From contig JAYZEG010000006.1 of NCBI GenBank assembly GCA_036337435.1, forward strand, positions 1 to 64,000: a DNA stretch of 64,000 nt, read 5' to 3'. The notes under the pieces are model-generated. The model had not been told where the DNA came from, ran no database searches, and worked only from the letters and a program-made list of their open reading frames with translations. Positions 57,671-63,998 of the stretch are shown here, in pieces (position 1 is the stretch's first letter; each line of letters opens with the position of its first letter). This DNA is from Myxococcota bacterium (GTDB lineage Bacteria; Myxococcota_A; Bradymonadia; UBA7976; UBA1532). The translations under genes were made by a program, and so were the position numbers.

Positions 57671-59767
57671 ATGATAAATTTTATTTTTCGGGGCCTAATC
57701 TGTCTCTTGACCGTCATTTTGCTGTCATGCGACGGATCGAATTCCAACACAGGAACCATTGTTCTGATCGATGCGGGCCATCCCGATCAGTCTCTGACCG
57801 TGAGCGATGGTAATCGAGCTTTAGACGGATCAGGTGGCATGTTGGACGACGCCGCTCTCCTTGTCGACGTAGGTGTTCCAGGCCCTACGATTCCAGGGCG
57901 CTGTGTCCCAGGAGACAGTTACGCAGCCGGTCGGTCAGTGTTTGTCGAGCGAACGACGGAATGGAAATTAGATCGGGCTGCCGTTAACGGTAATCGAATC
58001 ACCCTCGGGGATATTGATGGGGATGGATACGCGGATTTGGTGGTTAGGAAAAGTGGGGTTCGTGCAGATGTATTAGACGAAGCACAGGGGATAAGGCGCC
58101 ACCATTGGGTGCTCAGAAATCGCGGAAATGCCTTTCAAGATGTCACTGACCAGACCGGTGTATTTGAACCACGTGGTCAGTATCCACTCCGTCTTGGACG
58201 TCCCAGTGAAGTCATTGTGTTTGGTGACTTCGACAATGATGGCGATATGGATATCTACAGTGGTGTCGATACGCGCGCGGGTGTGGAATTGGAACTCGAC
58301 GGAATTGACCGAATCCAAGTCAATGAACGCAGCGAATTGCTCGTCAATGATGGCAATGGTGCATTCACGGCACTTGAGGCTGATCATACGCTGAGGCGAA
58401 TCGGGCGCGATGACGTTCCATCCGGTGCGTCGTGGCTAGACTTTAACCTCGATGGACATCTCGACCTCTGGATTGCGCAGGGTGGATTAGGCACACCAGC
58501 TCAAGACAGATTGTTTGTTGGCGATGGACAGGGTGGTTTTAATGATGTGACGTCTCAAGCTGGTCTTGAGACCAGACCTTGGATGAGTCTTGCCGATTTA
58601 AATTCAGGCCGGGCTCACACAACGGCATGGTCTGCCCTCGCTTGCGATTTGAACCGCGATGGGTTGCCTGAGTTACTCGCCGGATCTTATGGTCGTGCAC
58701 CAAATCATCTGTGGCAAGCTCAAATCGAATCAGGTCAGGTCAGGTACGAGAATCGAAGCGTCGAGTCAGGGTACGCTTTTGACCAGAATCAGCAGTGGCA
58801 GGATAATCAATTCGCTCGCTGCTTCTGCCAAGATCAGCCTGATATGCCGGATTGTGAGACTGCGCCTGCACCCAACATTGCGTGTAACCAGAGCAACTGG
58901 CGACATCAAACAGACAGGGAAGCCTTCCGGAATGGCGGGAACAGCGGAGCGACCGTATGTGCGGATTTCAACAACGATGGATGGATGGATCTTTACACCA
59001 CAGAAATCCGACATTGGTGGGCGGGGGTCGGTTCAGACGCCAGTGAAATTCTCATAAACCAAGGGATGGCTGACGTCACGTTTTCAAGACCTGGCCGGCA
59101 ACAGACTGGGCTCGGCATGGAGCACCAAACCCCGTCTTGGGATGAGGGTCACATTACCGCGGTTGCCTTTGACTTCGATAATGATGGTCGACAGGATATT
59201 TATTTAGGTGGAACAGACTATCCAGGCAATCGTGGTCACCTGTATCGAAACATCTCAACGGACGGGGATGTGCGTTTCAGCGAAATGAGAATCGATGATT
59301 TCTTTGAACACAATCGAAGTCACGGCATGGCCGTGGCGGACTTCGATCGAGACGGTGATCTCGACATCGTCGTCGGCCACAGTCGCAATCGATGCAATGC
59401 CAATCAGCCCAACAATTGCTATGAAACGGCCTCCCTCAGATACTTCGAAAACCAATTCGGCCAAGTGAACAACTGGATTCAGCTTGAGTTGGTTGGGATG
59501 GCTGGGAGTAATCGAGGTGCAGTGGGTGCAACGGTGACTGTAACCACTGGTTCGCTAAAGCAGACACAGCAAGTCATCGGAGGCTATGGTCATTATGGTG
59601 CACAGAATGACCGAATTCTTCACTTTGGCCTTGCAGGGCATTGTGAGGCACACATCGAAATCAAATGGCCTGACGTCCAGCAAACCAGTCAGAGCCTCCG
59701 ACTTAATTCAGGACATCGCTATCGGATTGTTCAAGGTCAGGCGGCGGAACTCAGCCCAGTTGAATGA
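57671..59767 (+). CDS. CRTAC1-family lipoprotein (FG-GAP/VCBS repeats plus ASPIC/UnbV domain)
   Basis: Lipobox LLSC; seven D.D.DG..D repeats; C-terminal NRGAVGATV...GYG..QNDRILHFGL...IKWP. Confidence 0.9.
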   Translation: MINFIFRGLICLLTVILLSCDGSNSNTGTIVLIDAGHPDQSLTVSDGNRALDGSGGMLDDAALLVDVGVPGPTIPGRCVPGDSYAAGRSVFVERTTEWKLDRAAVNGNRITLGDIDGDGYADLVVRKSGVRADVLDEAQGIRRHHWVLRNRGNAFQDVTDQTGVFEPRGQYPLRLGRPSEVIVFGDFDNDGDMDIYSGVDTRAGVELELDGIDRIQVNERSELLVNDGNGAFTALEADHTLRRIGRDDVPSGASWLDFNLDGHLDLWIAQGGLGTPAQDRLFVGDGQGGFNDVTSQAGLETRPWMSLADLNSGRAHTTAWSALACDLNRDGLPELLAGSYGRAPNHLWQAQIESGQVRYENRSVESGYAFDQNQQWQDNQFARCFCQDQPDMPDCETAPAPNIACNQSNWRHQTDREAFRNGGNSGATVCADFNNDGWMDLYTTEIRHWWAGVGSDASEILINQGMADVTFSRPGRQQTGLGMEHQTPSWDEGHITAVAFDFDNDGRQDIYLGGTDYPGNRGHLYRNISTDGDVRFSEMRIDDFFEHNRSHGMAVADFDRDGDLDIVVGHSRNRCNANQPNNCYETASLRYFENQFGQVNNWIQLELVGMAGSNRGAVGATVTVTTGSLKQTQQVIGGYGHYGAQNDRILHFGLAGHCEAHIEIKWPDVQQTSQSLRLNSGHRYRIVQGQAAELSPVE

Positions 59768-59774
59768 CCGACTC

Positions 59775-60788
59775 TTAATTTGATTGGCCTGCCATCAACT
59801 TTGCCAGAGGCTTGGTCCCTGCTTGGCTATCGAGCAGCACGCACATCGTTGCGGAGATGGGTACGGCCAAGAGCATGCCAGGAACACCCCAGAGCATACC
59901 CCAGAAGACCAGGCTCAGTAGAATTGTAATGGGATGTAGCTCCAGTGAATCCCCCATAATTTTCGGCTCCAAGACGTTGCCTATGATGATGTGGACCGTT
60001 GCCGGAAGCAGGACGGTTAACAAAACGGTCGTCCCGCTTAATGTGGGTTCGAAGAGGACTAAGGGAACGGGCAGCAAGGTTGCGATGATGGATCCAACAC
60101 TGGGAATGAAGTTCAACAGGAAAGCGAGAATACCGAAGAGAAGTGCTGCGTCGACCCCCAGGCTCAAAAGAATGATTGCTGTAAGAATCCCTGTTGCAGC
60201 TGACAGGGCAATTTTGATGGTCAAGTAGCGCTTGATGCGTCCTTCAATCTTCTGACGCACGGGTGACGAGTTTGCGTCAGTCTCGTCTAATGATTGTCCC
60301 TGCAACAGGTAAATGGCAAAGATGAGGATCAAAAAGGTATTGGACAAGAAAGCAATCAGCCCGTTTGCCAAATCACCCGCAGTCTCGCCCCAGTTCATAT
60401 TGCCCAGTTTTGACTTTATAGTTTGCGTATCGACTTCGAAACCTCGGAGCTGCAACCATTGGCTGATATCATCGATCATTTGTCCTAGCTTTGTCTGGTA
60501 TTTACTCGAGTTTGCCGACAACTCGCTGATGGATGAGGCGATGAGAAGAATCAGTCCGTAGAAGACCAGGCTGCAGACCACGAGCGAGCCCACGATGGCA
60601 ATGCCTCCCGGCAACCGCAGACGTGTTTGCAGTAAGCTGACCAGTGGCGAGAGCAAATAGGCTAAGAGGATCGATAGAATAAAGGGGATCATGACGGGTT
60701 TTAGCCAATAGAGAGCCGACGCGGATGCGATTGACGCGAGGATTGCTAAACAGACTGTTTGTGCCGTTTGGCTGGACTTTTCGCTCAT
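59775..60788 (-). CDS. AI-2E family transporter
   Basis: LLNFIPSVGS, GNVLEPKIMG..L.LHP, WG.LWG..G.LLAVP motifs. Start moved to ATG 60788. Confidence 0.93.
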   Translation of the reverse strand: MSEKSSQTAQTVCLAILASIASASALYWLKPVMIPFILSILLAYLLSPLVSLLQTRLRLPGGIAIVGSLVVCSLVFYGLILLIASSISELSANSSKYQTKLGQMIDDISQWLQLRGFEVDTQTIKSKLGNMNWGETAGDLANGLIAFLSNTFLILIFAIYLLQGQSLDETDANSSPVRQKIEGRIKRYLTIKIALSAATGILTAIILLSLGVDAALLFGILAFLLNFIPSVGSIIATLLPVPLVLFEPTLSGTTVLLTVLLPATVHIIIGNVLEPKIMGDSLELHPITILLSLVFWGMLWGVPGMLLAVPISATMCVLLDSQAGTKPLAKLMAGQSN

Positions 60789-60875
60789 GGCAGTTCTACC
60801 CCGAATTGGCGAGTTCATTTGGGAGCATGCCATGGTTTTTCTAATTGATCGAAGTTCTGTACTCAGTCGTTTTGT

Positions 60876-62321
60876 CTATGTCTTTAGACCAAGCCTTGTC
60901 TTCAGCTCATCAAAACGCCTGACCGCTTCGGCCTGGGCCTGTTTGAAGTCATCACTGTTGAGAATACTGTTCGCAAAATTTCCAAGCTTTCCCCGCCACA
61001 CACCCTTTGTCATCACGCCGTGCAAGGCTTGTGCAGCGTCTGCATACGCCAAGCTTCGTTGGATGTCATTCGCCGGCCAAATGGCGGGGTGTTCGAGGTT
61101 CCAAACGGTTAAATTCGCAAGGTGTCCGGCTCTAAGTTGCCCACACTTTACTTTTGGATGAATCTTGCCAGGTGTCTTCCAGACCGTGTCTAGCAGGGCG
61201 TGGGTGTCATTCATAAATGTACGATTTTTTCTCTCATCCACGCGGAATTGGTCCAAGGACCGGGCTGTCGTCTGTGTCGATTGCTCGGCAAAAGACCGCC
61301 TCAAATGTGAATGCGTTACTCGATAAGTTGGTCCTTCTGCCAGCAATCGTAACTCTTGTTGGACGTTCATGGTGTCATTGCAGGCTCCGGAATCGGTACC
61401 CAGCGCAATCCCAATACCGGCTTCCTGCCAGATAGAAACGGGCGCGGGAAAGCAAAACTGAACCTGGGAATACGGGCAATGCCCCAGAACATGTCTCTCT
61501 TTATCGAGCAGTCCAAGATCGTCTCGACTGACGAATTGTCCATGGACGAGCAAGAAAGCAACTGGGCTTGCGAGGACACCCAGTCGTCCGAGTCTAGCCA
61601 CCGGAGAACAACCATAGTCGGTTATATTCCTTTCGTACTCTTCGATGGACTGTCCGACGTGCGCATGGATTGGTATGTTTTCCTTTGCGGCCCAATCTGA
61701 AATCTTCCGCCAAAGGCTATCGCTGACCGTGTCTGTGGCATGGGGGCCCAAGGCTGAATAAATTCCCGATTTTTCATAGGCGCGACCATGGGTAATTGCA
61801 TCTGTTGCAATCCATTGTTGGTCGAGCCATTGGACGCCAGGTCCATTTAGGTCTTGCAATGTCGGTGCGACTACGCCGGTGACGCCTACATCCATCAATG
61901 CATCAGCGACGGATTGGGCATGGTAGTAATGATCCCAAACCATACCGATGCCGGATAACAAACAGTCATAGGCACCCATCCGGCTGAATGCTCTGACCTC
62001 TGCAGCTGTCAGGGTGCTCTCCAAATGAAAATATAGATCTTCTACGATATTGCCCGCCATGGCGGCTAAGCCAATTCCTCGGTAGACATTCATGGATAAG
62101 TGGGTATGAGAATTAATGAACGCTGGCGTTACGAGATGTGTACCGAGGTCGGTTACTTCGGCATCGGGCGTAACGGCGGCCGCGATTTGAGAACGCTCGA
62201 TCTCATCAACTCGGGTAATCAGTCCGTCTGTGATCTCAAGGAGCCTCGGTCCGATGGCATCGCTGGAACAACCCGTCATGACCCGGTCTGAAAAAATGAG
62301 TTGTGTCTGTTCTGGTCGCAT
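60876..62321 (-). CDS. Metal-dependent amidohydrolase (MtaD/GuaD/SsnA-like deaminase superfamily)
   Basis: PAFINSHTH, PHA, HAH, VHG, LGTD and G.LA(D/N)L motifs. Confidence 0.88.
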   Translation of the reverse strand: MRPEQTQLIFSDRVMTGCSSDAIGPRLLEITDGLITRVDEIERSQIAAAVTPDAEVTDLGTHLVTPAFINSHTHLSMNVYRGIGLAAMAGNIVEDLYFHLESTLTAAEVRAFSRMGAYDCLLSGIGMVWDHYYHAQSVADALMDVGVTGVVAPTLQDLNGPGVQWLDQQWIATDAITHGRAYEKSGIYSALGPHATDTVSDSLWRKISDWAAKENIPIHAHVGQSIEEYERNITDYGCSPVARLGRLGVLASPVAFLLVHGQFVSRDDLGLLDKERHVLGHCPYSQVQFCFPAPVSIWQEAGIGIALGTDSGACNDTMNVQQELRLLAEGPTYRVTHSHLRRSFAEQSTQTTARSLDQFRVDERKNRTFMNDTHALLDTVWKTPGKIHPKVKCGQLRAGHLANLTVWNLEHPAIWPANDIQRSLAYADAAQALHGVMTKGVWRGKLGNFANSILNSDDFKQAQAEAVRRFDELKTRLGLKT

Positions 62322-62436: not shown

Positions 62437-62985
62437 TCAGTTCGTTGCGCACACGAATTGGTTCATTAATTCATCGTAGTCGTAAAGCGAGCCCAGTTTG
62501 TCACAGGATAGATCTAACCAGTCATCTAGATTGTGCCCGCGACCAATATTGGGCCACTCTGGAGGTGGCTTGAGCCAACGGTTTAATTCATCTCGCATAT
62601 GACGCCTGTCCGATTGGAACTCTCCGAGAAACAGATGGGCTTTGCAGACCTTGAAGATTGGGTGATAAATTTTTGGAGCCCCTTTGAATGCAGCAAATGT
62701 CTGTTGAAGCCAATCGGTTGCTGAACAGGGAAAGGGAAGCCGCGAATCAAAGTCCCAAATCAGCGGGCTGGGATCGTAAGTGAGTGCTATCACGTGGTAA
62801 TCCCAAATGACGATGCCCTGTTCATCGCCCTGTTGCTGCTGGGCTAATGCGACGTGTTGGTCTTGATTGGTAATGAAAACGGCAGCATCGTTCGAGGGCC
62901 GTTGCACCGCCCTCGTCTTTAAGAATTGCCAAATATTTTCTTCGCAATAGAAGGCCTGATAGGCGTACTCAGTCCTCGTATCCAT
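62437..62985 (-). CDS. Protein N-terminal glutamine amidohydrolase (NTAQ1/WDYHV1 family)
   Basis: YCEENIW, AVFITN, VIWDYHV, WDFDSRLPFPC, F.SDRRHM and W.KPPP.WP motifs occur in the same order as in eukaryotic NTAQ1. Confidence 0.9.
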   Translation of the reverse strand: MDTRTEYAYQAFYCEENIWQFLKTRAVQRPSNDAAVFITNQDQHVALAQQQQGDEQGIVIWDYHVIALTYDPSPLIWDFDSRLPFPCSATDWLQQTFAAFKGAPKIYHPIFKVCKAHLFLGEFQSDRRHMRDELNRWLKPPPEWPNIGRGHNLDDWLDLSCDKLGSLYDYDELMNQFVCATN

Positions 62986-63004
62986 GGTCTACCTTCAATG
63001 TCAT

Positions 63005-63823
63005 TCAGAGGGATGCGACGAATCGCCTAATTAAATTTGCTGTCGGACCGGGTGCCTCAATGTGCGGTGCATGACCCGCTGTGTCGATGACACCACGGGT
63101 CGCATTGGGCAATTGTTTACGTAATTTCTCTGCCAGGCCGTCGTACTTCGTGTCTAGGCGACCCGTAATGAGTAAGACCGGCAGCGTCAATTGATGCAGT
63201 TCGTTCCATCGTGACGGTAGTCGACCAGGGCTAAGTGTCTTCAATGCATATGCAAGGCCGACCGCCGTGTGTTTTTTACGAATTGAACTCATTCGTTTTT
63301 GCAACTCGACACTCGCATTTGACTGGGTCGAAATAAGCGGAGTCTGGTTCCACAGCTTAAGGAATTCGTCCACGCCCAATTCTGTCAATTGGTGAGCCAA
63401 GGCGATATCTTTTTGGTACCGTGCCTCTCGTTCAGCAGGCGCACTGATGCCTGCAGTCCCGCTGATTAAAACCAGTGCTTTGGGCCTATGTTTTTTCCGT
63501 ACAAGCGTGTCGATAGCGACTCGAGCACCCATTGAGTAGCCAATCAAAACCGTGGAGGAGTCAGCTGCTTCGACGATAAAATTGGCGTAGGCGTCAATCT
63601 CGAAGGCTGTTGGGCCAGCTTTTGCGAGGGGACCATGCCCCAATAAATGGGATGCGGTAAAATGATGTCCTAGGCATTTGGCGAGTTCGCTGTAGTCACC
63701 AGGCCCACCCGTAAAGCCATGGAGGCCAAAGAAATGGGGCTGACATCCTCGCCAAATCAGCTTGGGGCTAGGCAGGCCTGGCCTTTTTGAATCGGTGGTC
63801 TCGCGACAGTCTTGAGTGGTCAT
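63005..63823 (-). CDS. menH: MenH-like (SHCHC synthase) alpha/beta hydrolase
   Basis: LHGFTG, GYSMGARVA, AGI....R..R...D..LA, FL..W...PL, G..D.KY, AGHAPH.E. Start at ATG 63823 or GTG 63859. Confidence 0.8.
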   Translation of the reverse strand: MTTQDCRETTDSKRPGLPSPKLIWRGCQPHFFGLHGFTGGPGDYSELAKCLGHHFTASHLLGHGPLAKAGPTAFEIDAYANFIVEAADSSTVLIGYSMGARVAIDTLVRKKHRPKALVLISGTAGISAPAEREARYQKDIALAHQLTELGVDEFLKLWNQTPLISTQSNASVELQKRMSSIRKKHTAVGLAYALKTLSPGRLPSRWNELHQLTLPVLLITGRLDTKYDGLAEKLRKQLPNATRGVIDTAGHAPHIEAPGPTANLIRRFVASL

Positions 63824-63830
63824 GAGACCA

Positions 63831-63998
63831 TCATACACGCTGGCGTCTACGCCTGACACCCGGTCCTACTGAGCTGCCCACAGTTGGTTCCTCCATGGGC
63901 TCGCCGACCGGTTGACGCTGTATCTTGCTCCAACCTGACAACGTCCAAAACCGATTGCCAGATGCATCGGTATGCTCTTCGATCGGGTATGACAGGCC
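63831..63998 (-). CDS. Possible 3' end of an upstream gene (partial)
   Basis: Open minus frame GLSYPIEEHTDASGNRFWTLSGW...RRRRQRV* ends 8 nt before the probable menH ATG; the other frames are also open here, so the frame is uncertain. Confidence 0.3.
   Translation of the reverse strand, partial: GLSYPIEEHTDASGNRFWTLSGWSKIQRQPVGEPMEEPTVGSSVGPGVRRRRQRV

Follow-up and report, generated by a model that had tools for sequence, protein, structure and literature searches.

Which task can a eukaryotic-type N-terminal glutamine amidase perform in a bacterium, and of what use is the deamidation of N-terminal Gln where N-terminal Glu is no known degron? To our knowledge, amidase steps that act on N-termini have been described in eukaryotes only. 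The question is raised by an open reading frame (ORF) in the window, i.e., the whole analysed stretch of 64,000 nucleotides from a Myxococcota bacterium (GCA_036337435.1, contig JAYZEG010000006.1, positions 1 to 64,000). It lies at 62437..62985 on the minus strand, starts with ATG, is the only ORF listed there and encodes a protein of 182 amino acids. The genome of the window (G000) was found to contain 4.38 Mb in 95 contigs and is 87% complete. The best explanation, to which we give a probability of about 70%, is that the protein belongs to the NTAQ1 family and works in the cytoplasm as a cysteine amidase acting on N-terminal Gln, that its product has no described entry to ClpS in this bacterium, and that the family probably supplies the transferase Bpt with substrates elsewhere.

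PF09764 (Nt_Gln_amidase) was the single Pfam family matched by the protein, with 161.2 bits (cut-off 27; E 2.6e-47), and the match covered profile positions 1-184 of 184. The same ORF scored 160.8 bits in the whole-genome scan of G000, and NCBIfam contained no model for it. In the sequence search of the PDB with phmmer, all 15 matches were human NTAQ1 chains; residues 6-177 aligned with residues 20-200 of the top chain (E 2e-25). The translation contained the YCEENIW (13-19), WDYHV (61-65), WDFDSRLPFPC (77-87), and SDRRHM (125-130) motifs, followed by a proline motif, PPPEWP, at 140-145. A preliminary description of this DNA had listed the same motifs, with a trivial slip in the last one, which was given as PPP.P instead of PPP..P. 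As had also been described, a signal peptide appears to be absent, the N-terminus being devoid of any hydrophobic stretch and the catalytic Cys being residue 14. Judged by its sequence, the ORF encodes a full-length NTAQ1-family member.

The AlphaFold2 model of the protein was built on an alignment of 31 sequences (the window protein, 27 metagenomic or bacterial and three crustacean sequences) and reached a predicted local distance difference test score (pLDDT) of 95.7 and a predicted template modelling score (pTM) of 0.91. In the Foldseek search against the PDB, the first 15 entries were human NTAQ1, with a query-based template modelling (TM) score of 0.88-0.90, a root-mean-square deviation of 1.8-2.1 Å and an identity of 31-33%. 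The best matches, 8jjh and 4w79 (TM 0.90, deviation about 2.0 Å), show the model to have the three-layer alpha-beta-alpha fold of NTAQ1. In the phmmer alignment, Cys14, His64, and Asp78 aligned with Cys28, His81, and Asp97 of the human enzyme, whereas Glu15, Asp62, Tyr63, His129, and Met130 aligned with human Glu29, Asp79, Tyr80, His148, and Met149, respectively. The C14, E15, E16, N17, W61, D62, Y63, H64, V65, D78, R127, H129, M130, and P142 residues were invariant in 31/31 sequences, and all eight positions predicted for the triad and for alpha-amino binding were among them. The five human residues hold the alpha-amino group and the first backbone atoms of the substrate (PMC11168063), and the Cys-His-Asp triad of NTAQ1 acts by a thioester mechanism (PMC4214742). 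The preliminary description had proposed an intact NTAQ1 homologue with Cys14-His64-Asp78 placed like the NTAQ1 triad, and had suggested a search with the Pfam profile; the full-length profile match, fold, triad, and alpha-amino-binding residues all agree with that proposal.

Because the family, fold, triad, and alpha-amino-binding residues are conserved, it is very probable that the enzyme is an N-terminal-Gln amidohydrolase which deamidates N-terminal Gln. It would hydrolyse the side-chain amide of N-terminal Gln in proteolytic fragments or peptides, with N-terminal Glu and ammonia as products. In this reaction Cys14 would act as the nucleophile and His64, partnered by Asp78, as the base. 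The free alpha-amino group would be held by Glu15, Asp62, Tyr63, His129, and Met130, which would restrict the enzyme to N-terminal Gln. The folds that followed NTAQ1 in the Foldseek search were protein-glutaminases and SseI, a distant likeness that is also noted in PMC4214742, and the protein might accordingly be imagined to deamidate internal Gln residues of target proteins in the manner of protein-glutaminases or papain-fold effectors. However, these matches were weak (E 1e-2 to 0.25, TM 0.31-0.37, against 0.90 for NTAQ1), the residues that bind the alpha-amino group were invariant, the protein had neither a signal peptide nor a secretion-system context, and PF09764 was its sole Pfam match. 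We regard a deamidase of internal residues as very improbable.

The NTAQ1 family is patchy but widespread in bacteria. In a collection clustered at 90% identity, 267 proteins matched at E <= 1e-5; most were unnamed metagenome proteins, and some were already named 'protein N-terminal glutamine amidohydrolase' by the automatic annotation of the Joint Genome Institute (JGI). At E <= 1e-3, 1900 clusters (50% identity) matched. A scan of species genomes, confined to one peptide pattern, found 140 stretches encoding a relative, from which 80 loci were retained. The titles of these 80 loci included Myxococcota (Nannocystales, Polyangium, Minicystis, and Paraliomyxa), Planctomycetota (Kuenenia and Uabimicrobium), Acidobacteriota, Gammaproteobacteria, and Lentisphaeria, together with Spirochaetales, Bdellovibrionales, Hydrogenedentota, and Obscuribacterales. 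In whole-genome scans, PF09764 was present in 18/61 genomes of a sample of the window's class (G000 and 60 relatives), 47/401 genomes of its phylum, 8/151 Planctomycetota, and 0/14 control genomes. No paper evidently devoted to a bacterial NTAQ1 homologue was found among the papers retrieved by literature searches, which were judged mainly by their titles and abstracts. In three loci, L018 (5206-6522, plus strand), L041, and L076, which have a Nannocystales-type synteny (L027 is titled Nannocystales), the NTAQ1-bearing open frame was about 438 amino acids long; its N-terminal extension of about 265 amino acids matched no Pfam family and may be either real or a long spurious frame in DNA of high guanine-plus-cytosine (GC) content.

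The wide bacterial spread of the family bears on the source of the eukaryotic enzyme. A quick IQ-TREE analysis was made with 136 rows and 179 columns, leaving out L012 (a partial envelope) and five exact duplicates; its root is arbitrary, and metazoans were its only eukaryotes, with no plant, fungal or protist sequence. The nine metazoan sequences formed one clade (Shimodaira-Hasegawa-like approximate likelihood ratio test, SH-aLRT, 99), whose neighbour, with a support of 93 (unstarred), was a group made up of sequences from Gammaproteobacteria, Lentisphaeraceae, and Uabimicrobium. The protein of the window grouped with that of G001, a genome of the same genus (93), and then with a sequence of family f6 (91), and the sequences of family f1 were placed in at least four separate parts of the tree. 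With its deep branches not separated and metazoans as the sole eukaryotes, the tree shows only that the gene departs from the species groups and gives no answer on the source of the gene in eukaryotes.

[quoted passage not shown] We therefore examined the presence of Bpt, by its ATE_C domain, in carriers of NTAQ1. From the 80 loci, 50 diverse carriers were picked for distinct labels and longer contigs before any Bpt result. A full ATE_C match was found in 43/50 and ClpS in 49/50. The seven carriers without ATE_C were G061 (the same genome as G001), G069, G070, G076, G092 (Sulfidibacter), G099, and G106, the last having an NTAQ1 protein identical to that of G008. In Gammaproteobacteria, 10/10 carriers (labelled by class, order or family) contained Bpt, against a background of 104/200 genomes (102/198 without the two positives G499 and G577, which are flagged unpublished). 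Bpt was present in 32/151 genomes of the Planctomycetota sample, comprising 6/8 carriers and 26/143 non-carriers (Fisher p 0.0012); without the centre genome, the carriers numbered 5/7 (p 0.0044). The carriers labelled Lentisphaeria contained Bpt in 3/3 cases, two of them with two copies, whereas around the Lentisphaeraceae carrier G081 only 1/150 other genomes of the phylum had ATE_C (63 bits, in a genome without NTAQ1); as the shared GTDB phylum is confirmed for G081 only, labels are here compared with the phylum of G081. All p-values overstate the effect, because related genomes are not independent.

A clear pattern was observed: NTAQ1 and Bpt go together in lineages other than that of the window, whereas inside the latter they do not. 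The co-occurrence check that the preliminary description had called for thus came out in its favour in Planctomycetota, Lentisphaeria, and Gammaproteobacteria, but not in the window's own phylum. As carriers hold Bpt far above background, a tertiary Gln tier is plausible in Bpt-bearing bacteria, where the family would probably supply Bpt with substrates; we give such a tier about even odds. In this way, an intact bacterial NTAQ1 family is documented whose members are found together with Bpt in three phyla that otherwise seldom or only rarely contain Bpt, and the bacterial 'Gln tier' becomes a hypothesis directly testable with existing reporter assays. In six carriers of gammaproteobacterial type (G064, G087, G094, G095, G105, and G109), bpt and clpS were located 3-6 kb apart on the same contig, and NTAQ1 was located elsewhere.

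The genome of the window was found to contain one ClpS (97 bits), whose ORF abuts or overlaps an ORF of ClpA type, in which Clp_N, AAA, and AAA_lid_9 domains were recognised, and one Aat (PF03588, 214 bits). The N-recognin and the protease of a tiered pathway are thus provided by clpS-clpA, whereas a transferase for N-terminal Glu, either ATE1 or Bpt, was not found. Several results weigh against the explanation given at the outset. Neither ATE_C nor ATE_N, the two domains of Bpt and ATE1, was found in G000 at its 87% completeness. In the class sample, which contained ATE_C in 11, ClpS in 54, and Aat in 59 of the 61 genomes, ATE_C was present in 5/18 carriers and 6/43 non-carriers (p 0.27), and two of these five carriers had partial matches only (G017, 35 bits; G025, 66 bits). 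The phylum sample contained ATE_C in 120 of 401 genomes, comprising 17/47 carriers and 103/354 non-carriers (p 0.31); the match was low-scoring (35-65 bits) in four of the 17 carriers, G182 and G247 being of an ATE_C-like type of about 350 amino acids. NTAQ1 was present in 7/17 genomes of family f1, 14/35 of family f6, and 7/25 of family f29, whereas the numbers for ATE_C were 1/17, 3/35, and 0/25, respectively, and none of these ATE_C matches was canonical. Among the 92 NTAQ1 loci whose neighbourhoods were clustered (flanks up to 6 kb, or 1.5 kb for the loci of class relatives), no neighbour was common across phyla, and none was kept beyond the genus for the locus of the window. In the protein itself, Lys139 stands where the human enzyme has Glu158, in a variable column of the 31-sequence alignment, and for all bacterial members the reaction itself is inferred from sequence and fold.

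The preliminary description had suggested that the enzyme turns proteins with N-terminal Gln into Bpt substrates. Applied to G000 itself, this would mean that N-terminal Gln is deamidated, that Bpt adds Leu to the resulting N-terminal Glu and that ClpS-ClpAP degrades the product. ClpS, ClpA, and Aat are indeed present, an incomplete assembly could have missed bpt, and the carriers of other phyla nearly always have Bpt. But ATE_C and ATE_N were likewise not found in G001 (same genus, 100% complete), G002, and G003, and the 27 other genomes of the window's family yielded no canonical Bpt, only the two partial, low-scoring matches of G017 and G025. The match of G025 was a 357-amino-acid ORF of ATE_C-like/Acetyltransf_6 type and not a canonical Bpt, and at the G017 site the one ORF scanned matched no Pfam family. 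We consider the Bpt route improbable in G000; as no Bpt was found, the N-terminal Glu product is barred there from the described ClpS route. The suggested tier is thus not supported in G000 and its own family and gains ground elsewhere. The absence of bpt and clpS from carrier genomes had been named beforehand as refuting the N-degron role; of the two, clpS is present in G000 and bpt was not found there. For NTAN1 (PF14736), no match was found in G000, but none was found in the control genomes either, and this negative therefore carries little weight.

An N-degron route might also operate without Bpt, by an Aat with wider acceptors, an unrecognised transferase or an unknown recognin for N-terminal Glu. 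Such a route is suggested by a naturally fused protein of 460 amino acids, P0158 of Achromatium sp. WMS3 (named 'hypothetical protein'), which contains PF09764 at 8-169 and a divergent Aat-like PF03588 domain at 249-419 (82.6 bits), and by the acceptance of Thr, besides Arg, Lys, and Met, by the E. coli L/F-transferase (bioRxiv 10.1101/2021.07.26.453911). The fusion was, however, a single cluster among 26 hits, and other NTAQ1 fusions contained unrelated domains (NUDIX, low-molecular-weight phosphatase, and methyltransferase), so it is only a lead. The stand-alone relatives of its Aat-like domain (P0248 type, about 280 amino acids) form an Aat-like subfamily. Two Aat matches each were found in five genomes of family f1, four of which are carriers (G008, G017, G021, and G027) and one a non-carrier (G004). 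In four of the five, each match spanned the full length and exceeded 215 bits, the second match of G027 being partial (185 bits); G000 has one Aat. The five ATE_C-like matches of families f1 and f6 (G017, G025, G182, G247, and G367) were all in carriers, and three of the four scanned were proteins of about 350 amino acids of ATE_C-like/Acetyltransf_6 type; the ORF of G017 gave no match and G367 lay outside the scan. Proteins of this type without ATE_N were located at L101:456-1529(-), L102:565-1614(+), L104:598-1659(+), and L105:549-1610(+), and in genomes of the phylum that have Bpt the type was also met with as a second copy. In G000, by contrast, neither a P0248-type Aat-like paralogue nor a 350-amino-acid ATE_C-like protein was found. 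In a tblastn search of the 92 loci and their flanks, neither the four Bpt ORFs used as queries nor P0248 nor the C-terminal half of P0158 gave a match, i.e., no Aat- or Bpt-like gene was found in the flanks; the queries from L098 and L003, which were probably wrong ORFs, were disregarded. On balance, we regard an N-degron route without Bpt as possible but unlikely.

The surroundings of the gene were examined as well. The NTAQ1 ORF starts 19 nucleotides after the end of a menH-like gene (63005..63859, minus strand), which encodes an alpha/beta hydrolase of 284 amino acids with Abhydrolase_1/6 matches. The name menH-like was chosen because the best NCBIfam model, TIGR03695, scored 175.7 bits, below its cut-off of 208.55; of the earlier statement that the ORF follows menH, the spacing was right and the name was too firm. 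A menD above its cut-off was located on a different contig of G000. Within the 19-nucleotide gap, a putative Shine-Dalgarno-like GAAGG was read at 62992..62996 (minus strand), 6 nucleotides before the ATG, in line with the ribosome-binding site previously proposed. The menH-like and NTAQ1 genes are probably co-transcribed. Downstream by 115 nucleotides is a TRZ/ATZ-type metal amidohydrolase of 481 amino acids (60876..62321, minus strand; Amidohydro_1; NF006549 146.6 bits, far under its cut-off), followed by an AI-2E family transporter gene (59775..60833, minus strand; PF01594, 157.9 bits), the last gene of a same-strand block common to G001. Upstream of the menH-like gene, and overlapping it by 29 nucleotides, is a gene for a protein of about 400 amino acids with no assigned function (L015:4832-6049(-), equal to 63831-65048 of G000 contig C6, partly past the window), which has recurring internal GGL.GS..RW... 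segments and is kept in G001. Convergent with the block, at 57671-59767 on the plus strand, is a gene for a 698-amino-acid protein with a signal-like N-terminus, six FG-GAP-type repeats and an ASPIC/UnbV domain.

The order of the approximately 400-amino-acid protein (399-405 amino acids), menH-like, NTAQ1, TRZ/ATZ amidohydrolase, and AI-2E transporter genes was the same in G001, where the menH-like gene and NTAQ1 have 4 nucleotides in common. In G003 (same genus) the amidohydrolase directly follows NTAQ1, and in G002 (same genus, 81% complete) neither gene was found. The window stretch was matched in marine or seawater metagenomes of 11 studies; contigs from independent marine metagenomes cover the NTAQ1 ORF, and a DNA contig of an independent run (62559-63117) bridges the junction of the NTAQ1 and menH-like genes. 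Two RNA libraries gave no contig on the NTAQ1 ORF, their contigs lying only on its two neighbouring genes. Since the family is described in eukaryotes, and crustacean proteins with 37-39% identity were among the matches, the ORF might be a eukaryotic contamination or an assembly chimera. It sits, however, on a bacterial contig of 65,050 bases, its GC content (0.48-0.51) is ordinary beside that of its flanks (0.49-0.55), and its nearest relatives are metagenomic or bacterial, with 65% and 48% identity. The junction-spanning contig and the synteny in three genomes of the genus refute contamination, to which we attach next to no probability, and the ORF is native to the bacterial chromosome, as the preliminary description had argued. 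Between the syntenic NTAQ1 proteins of the window and G001 (L007 and L016, which encode identical proteins) the identity was 48%, although both belong to one genus, and the downstream amidohydrolase of G003 showed 54%; this points either to a fast-evolving block or to a broad genus. Four differences inside the ORF (62638, 62808, 62834, and 62865) were found between the window and the contigs of two other marine metagenome runs; at least three were off third codon positions, and the population therefore varies in protein sequence. As no neighbour is conserved beyond the genus, the context gives no clue to the role of the enzyme here. Some neighbours recurred among the 92 loci, namely histidine kinases at 12 loci, Omp85 at 7 (with labels of Nannocystales type and a common synteny), and a pseudouridine synthase of RluA type at 6, and these appear incidental.

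A further reading is that of a catabolic or housekeeping peptide amidase, which would convert the N-terminal Gln of peptides, whether imported or made inside the cell, to Glu and thereby keep them from pyroglutamate formation and open to aminopeptidases, with no degradation signal involved. It fits the failure to find Bpt in the three carrier-rich families of the phylum and the position of the gene, which lies on one strand together with a transporter gene and genes for two further hydrolases. Bradymonadia, named in the title of the G001 record ('Bradymonadia bacterium'), are predatory, and many carriers are predators or large-genome heterotrophs (the records include Bdellovibrionales, Nannocystales, Polyangium, and Uabimicrobium). 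On the other side, a pyroglutamyl peptidase gene is already present in G000, the block is kept within the genus only, and the strong co-occurrence with Bpt in other phyla would be unexpected for a purely nutritional enzyme. Moreover, the spontaneous cyclisation of N-terminal Gln is slow compared with the action of aminopeptidases. A peptide amidase of this kind is a possible but doubtful account.

For the role of NTAQ1 in this genome, no single reading is favoured. The enzyme of G000 may prepare N-termini for a different end, for example the breakdown of peptides or the avoidance of pyroglutamate, or may feed them to an unrecognised link to ClpS-ClpA. Taken loosely, a joint reading would place a Gln tier in the Bpt-bearing carriers and an unrecognised transferase or N-terminal Glu recognin, wiring the amidase to protein turnover, in the Bpt-less lineage of Bradymonadia type; we hold it tentatively, at odds well short of even. 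If it is true, the eukaryotic NTAQ1 would be a single branch within a family that is older and mostly bacterial.

Compared with known systems, the closest likeness is that to human and mouse NTAQ1 (PF09764; PDB 4W79, 3C9Q, and 8JJF-8JK2), with which the window protein shares the complete profile match, a sequence identity of 32-33%, the fold (TM 0.88-0.90), the Cys-His-Asp triad, and the Glu/Asp/Tyr/His/Met set for the alpha-amino group (PMC11168063, PMC4214742). It differs in its host, a bacterium without ubiquitin or ATE1 and with no transferase for N-terminal Glu found in G000, in its start about 14 residues later than that of the human enzyme, and in the replacement of Glu158. Human Glu158 shapes the second-residue preference of NTAQ1. 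Yeast Nta1 and mammalian NTAN1 have folds unrelated to NTAQ1. They provide the same kind of amidase step in the eukaryotic Arg/N-degron pathway (PMC11168063). The Chryseobacterium protein-glutaminase and the bacterial transglutaminase-like cysteine proteases contain a papain/transglutaminase-like Cys-His-Asp core (PMC10318531, PMC4214742), but their likeness is distant (TM about 0.36, E about 1e-2), and they act on internal residues or cleave peptide bonds. [quoted passage not shown]

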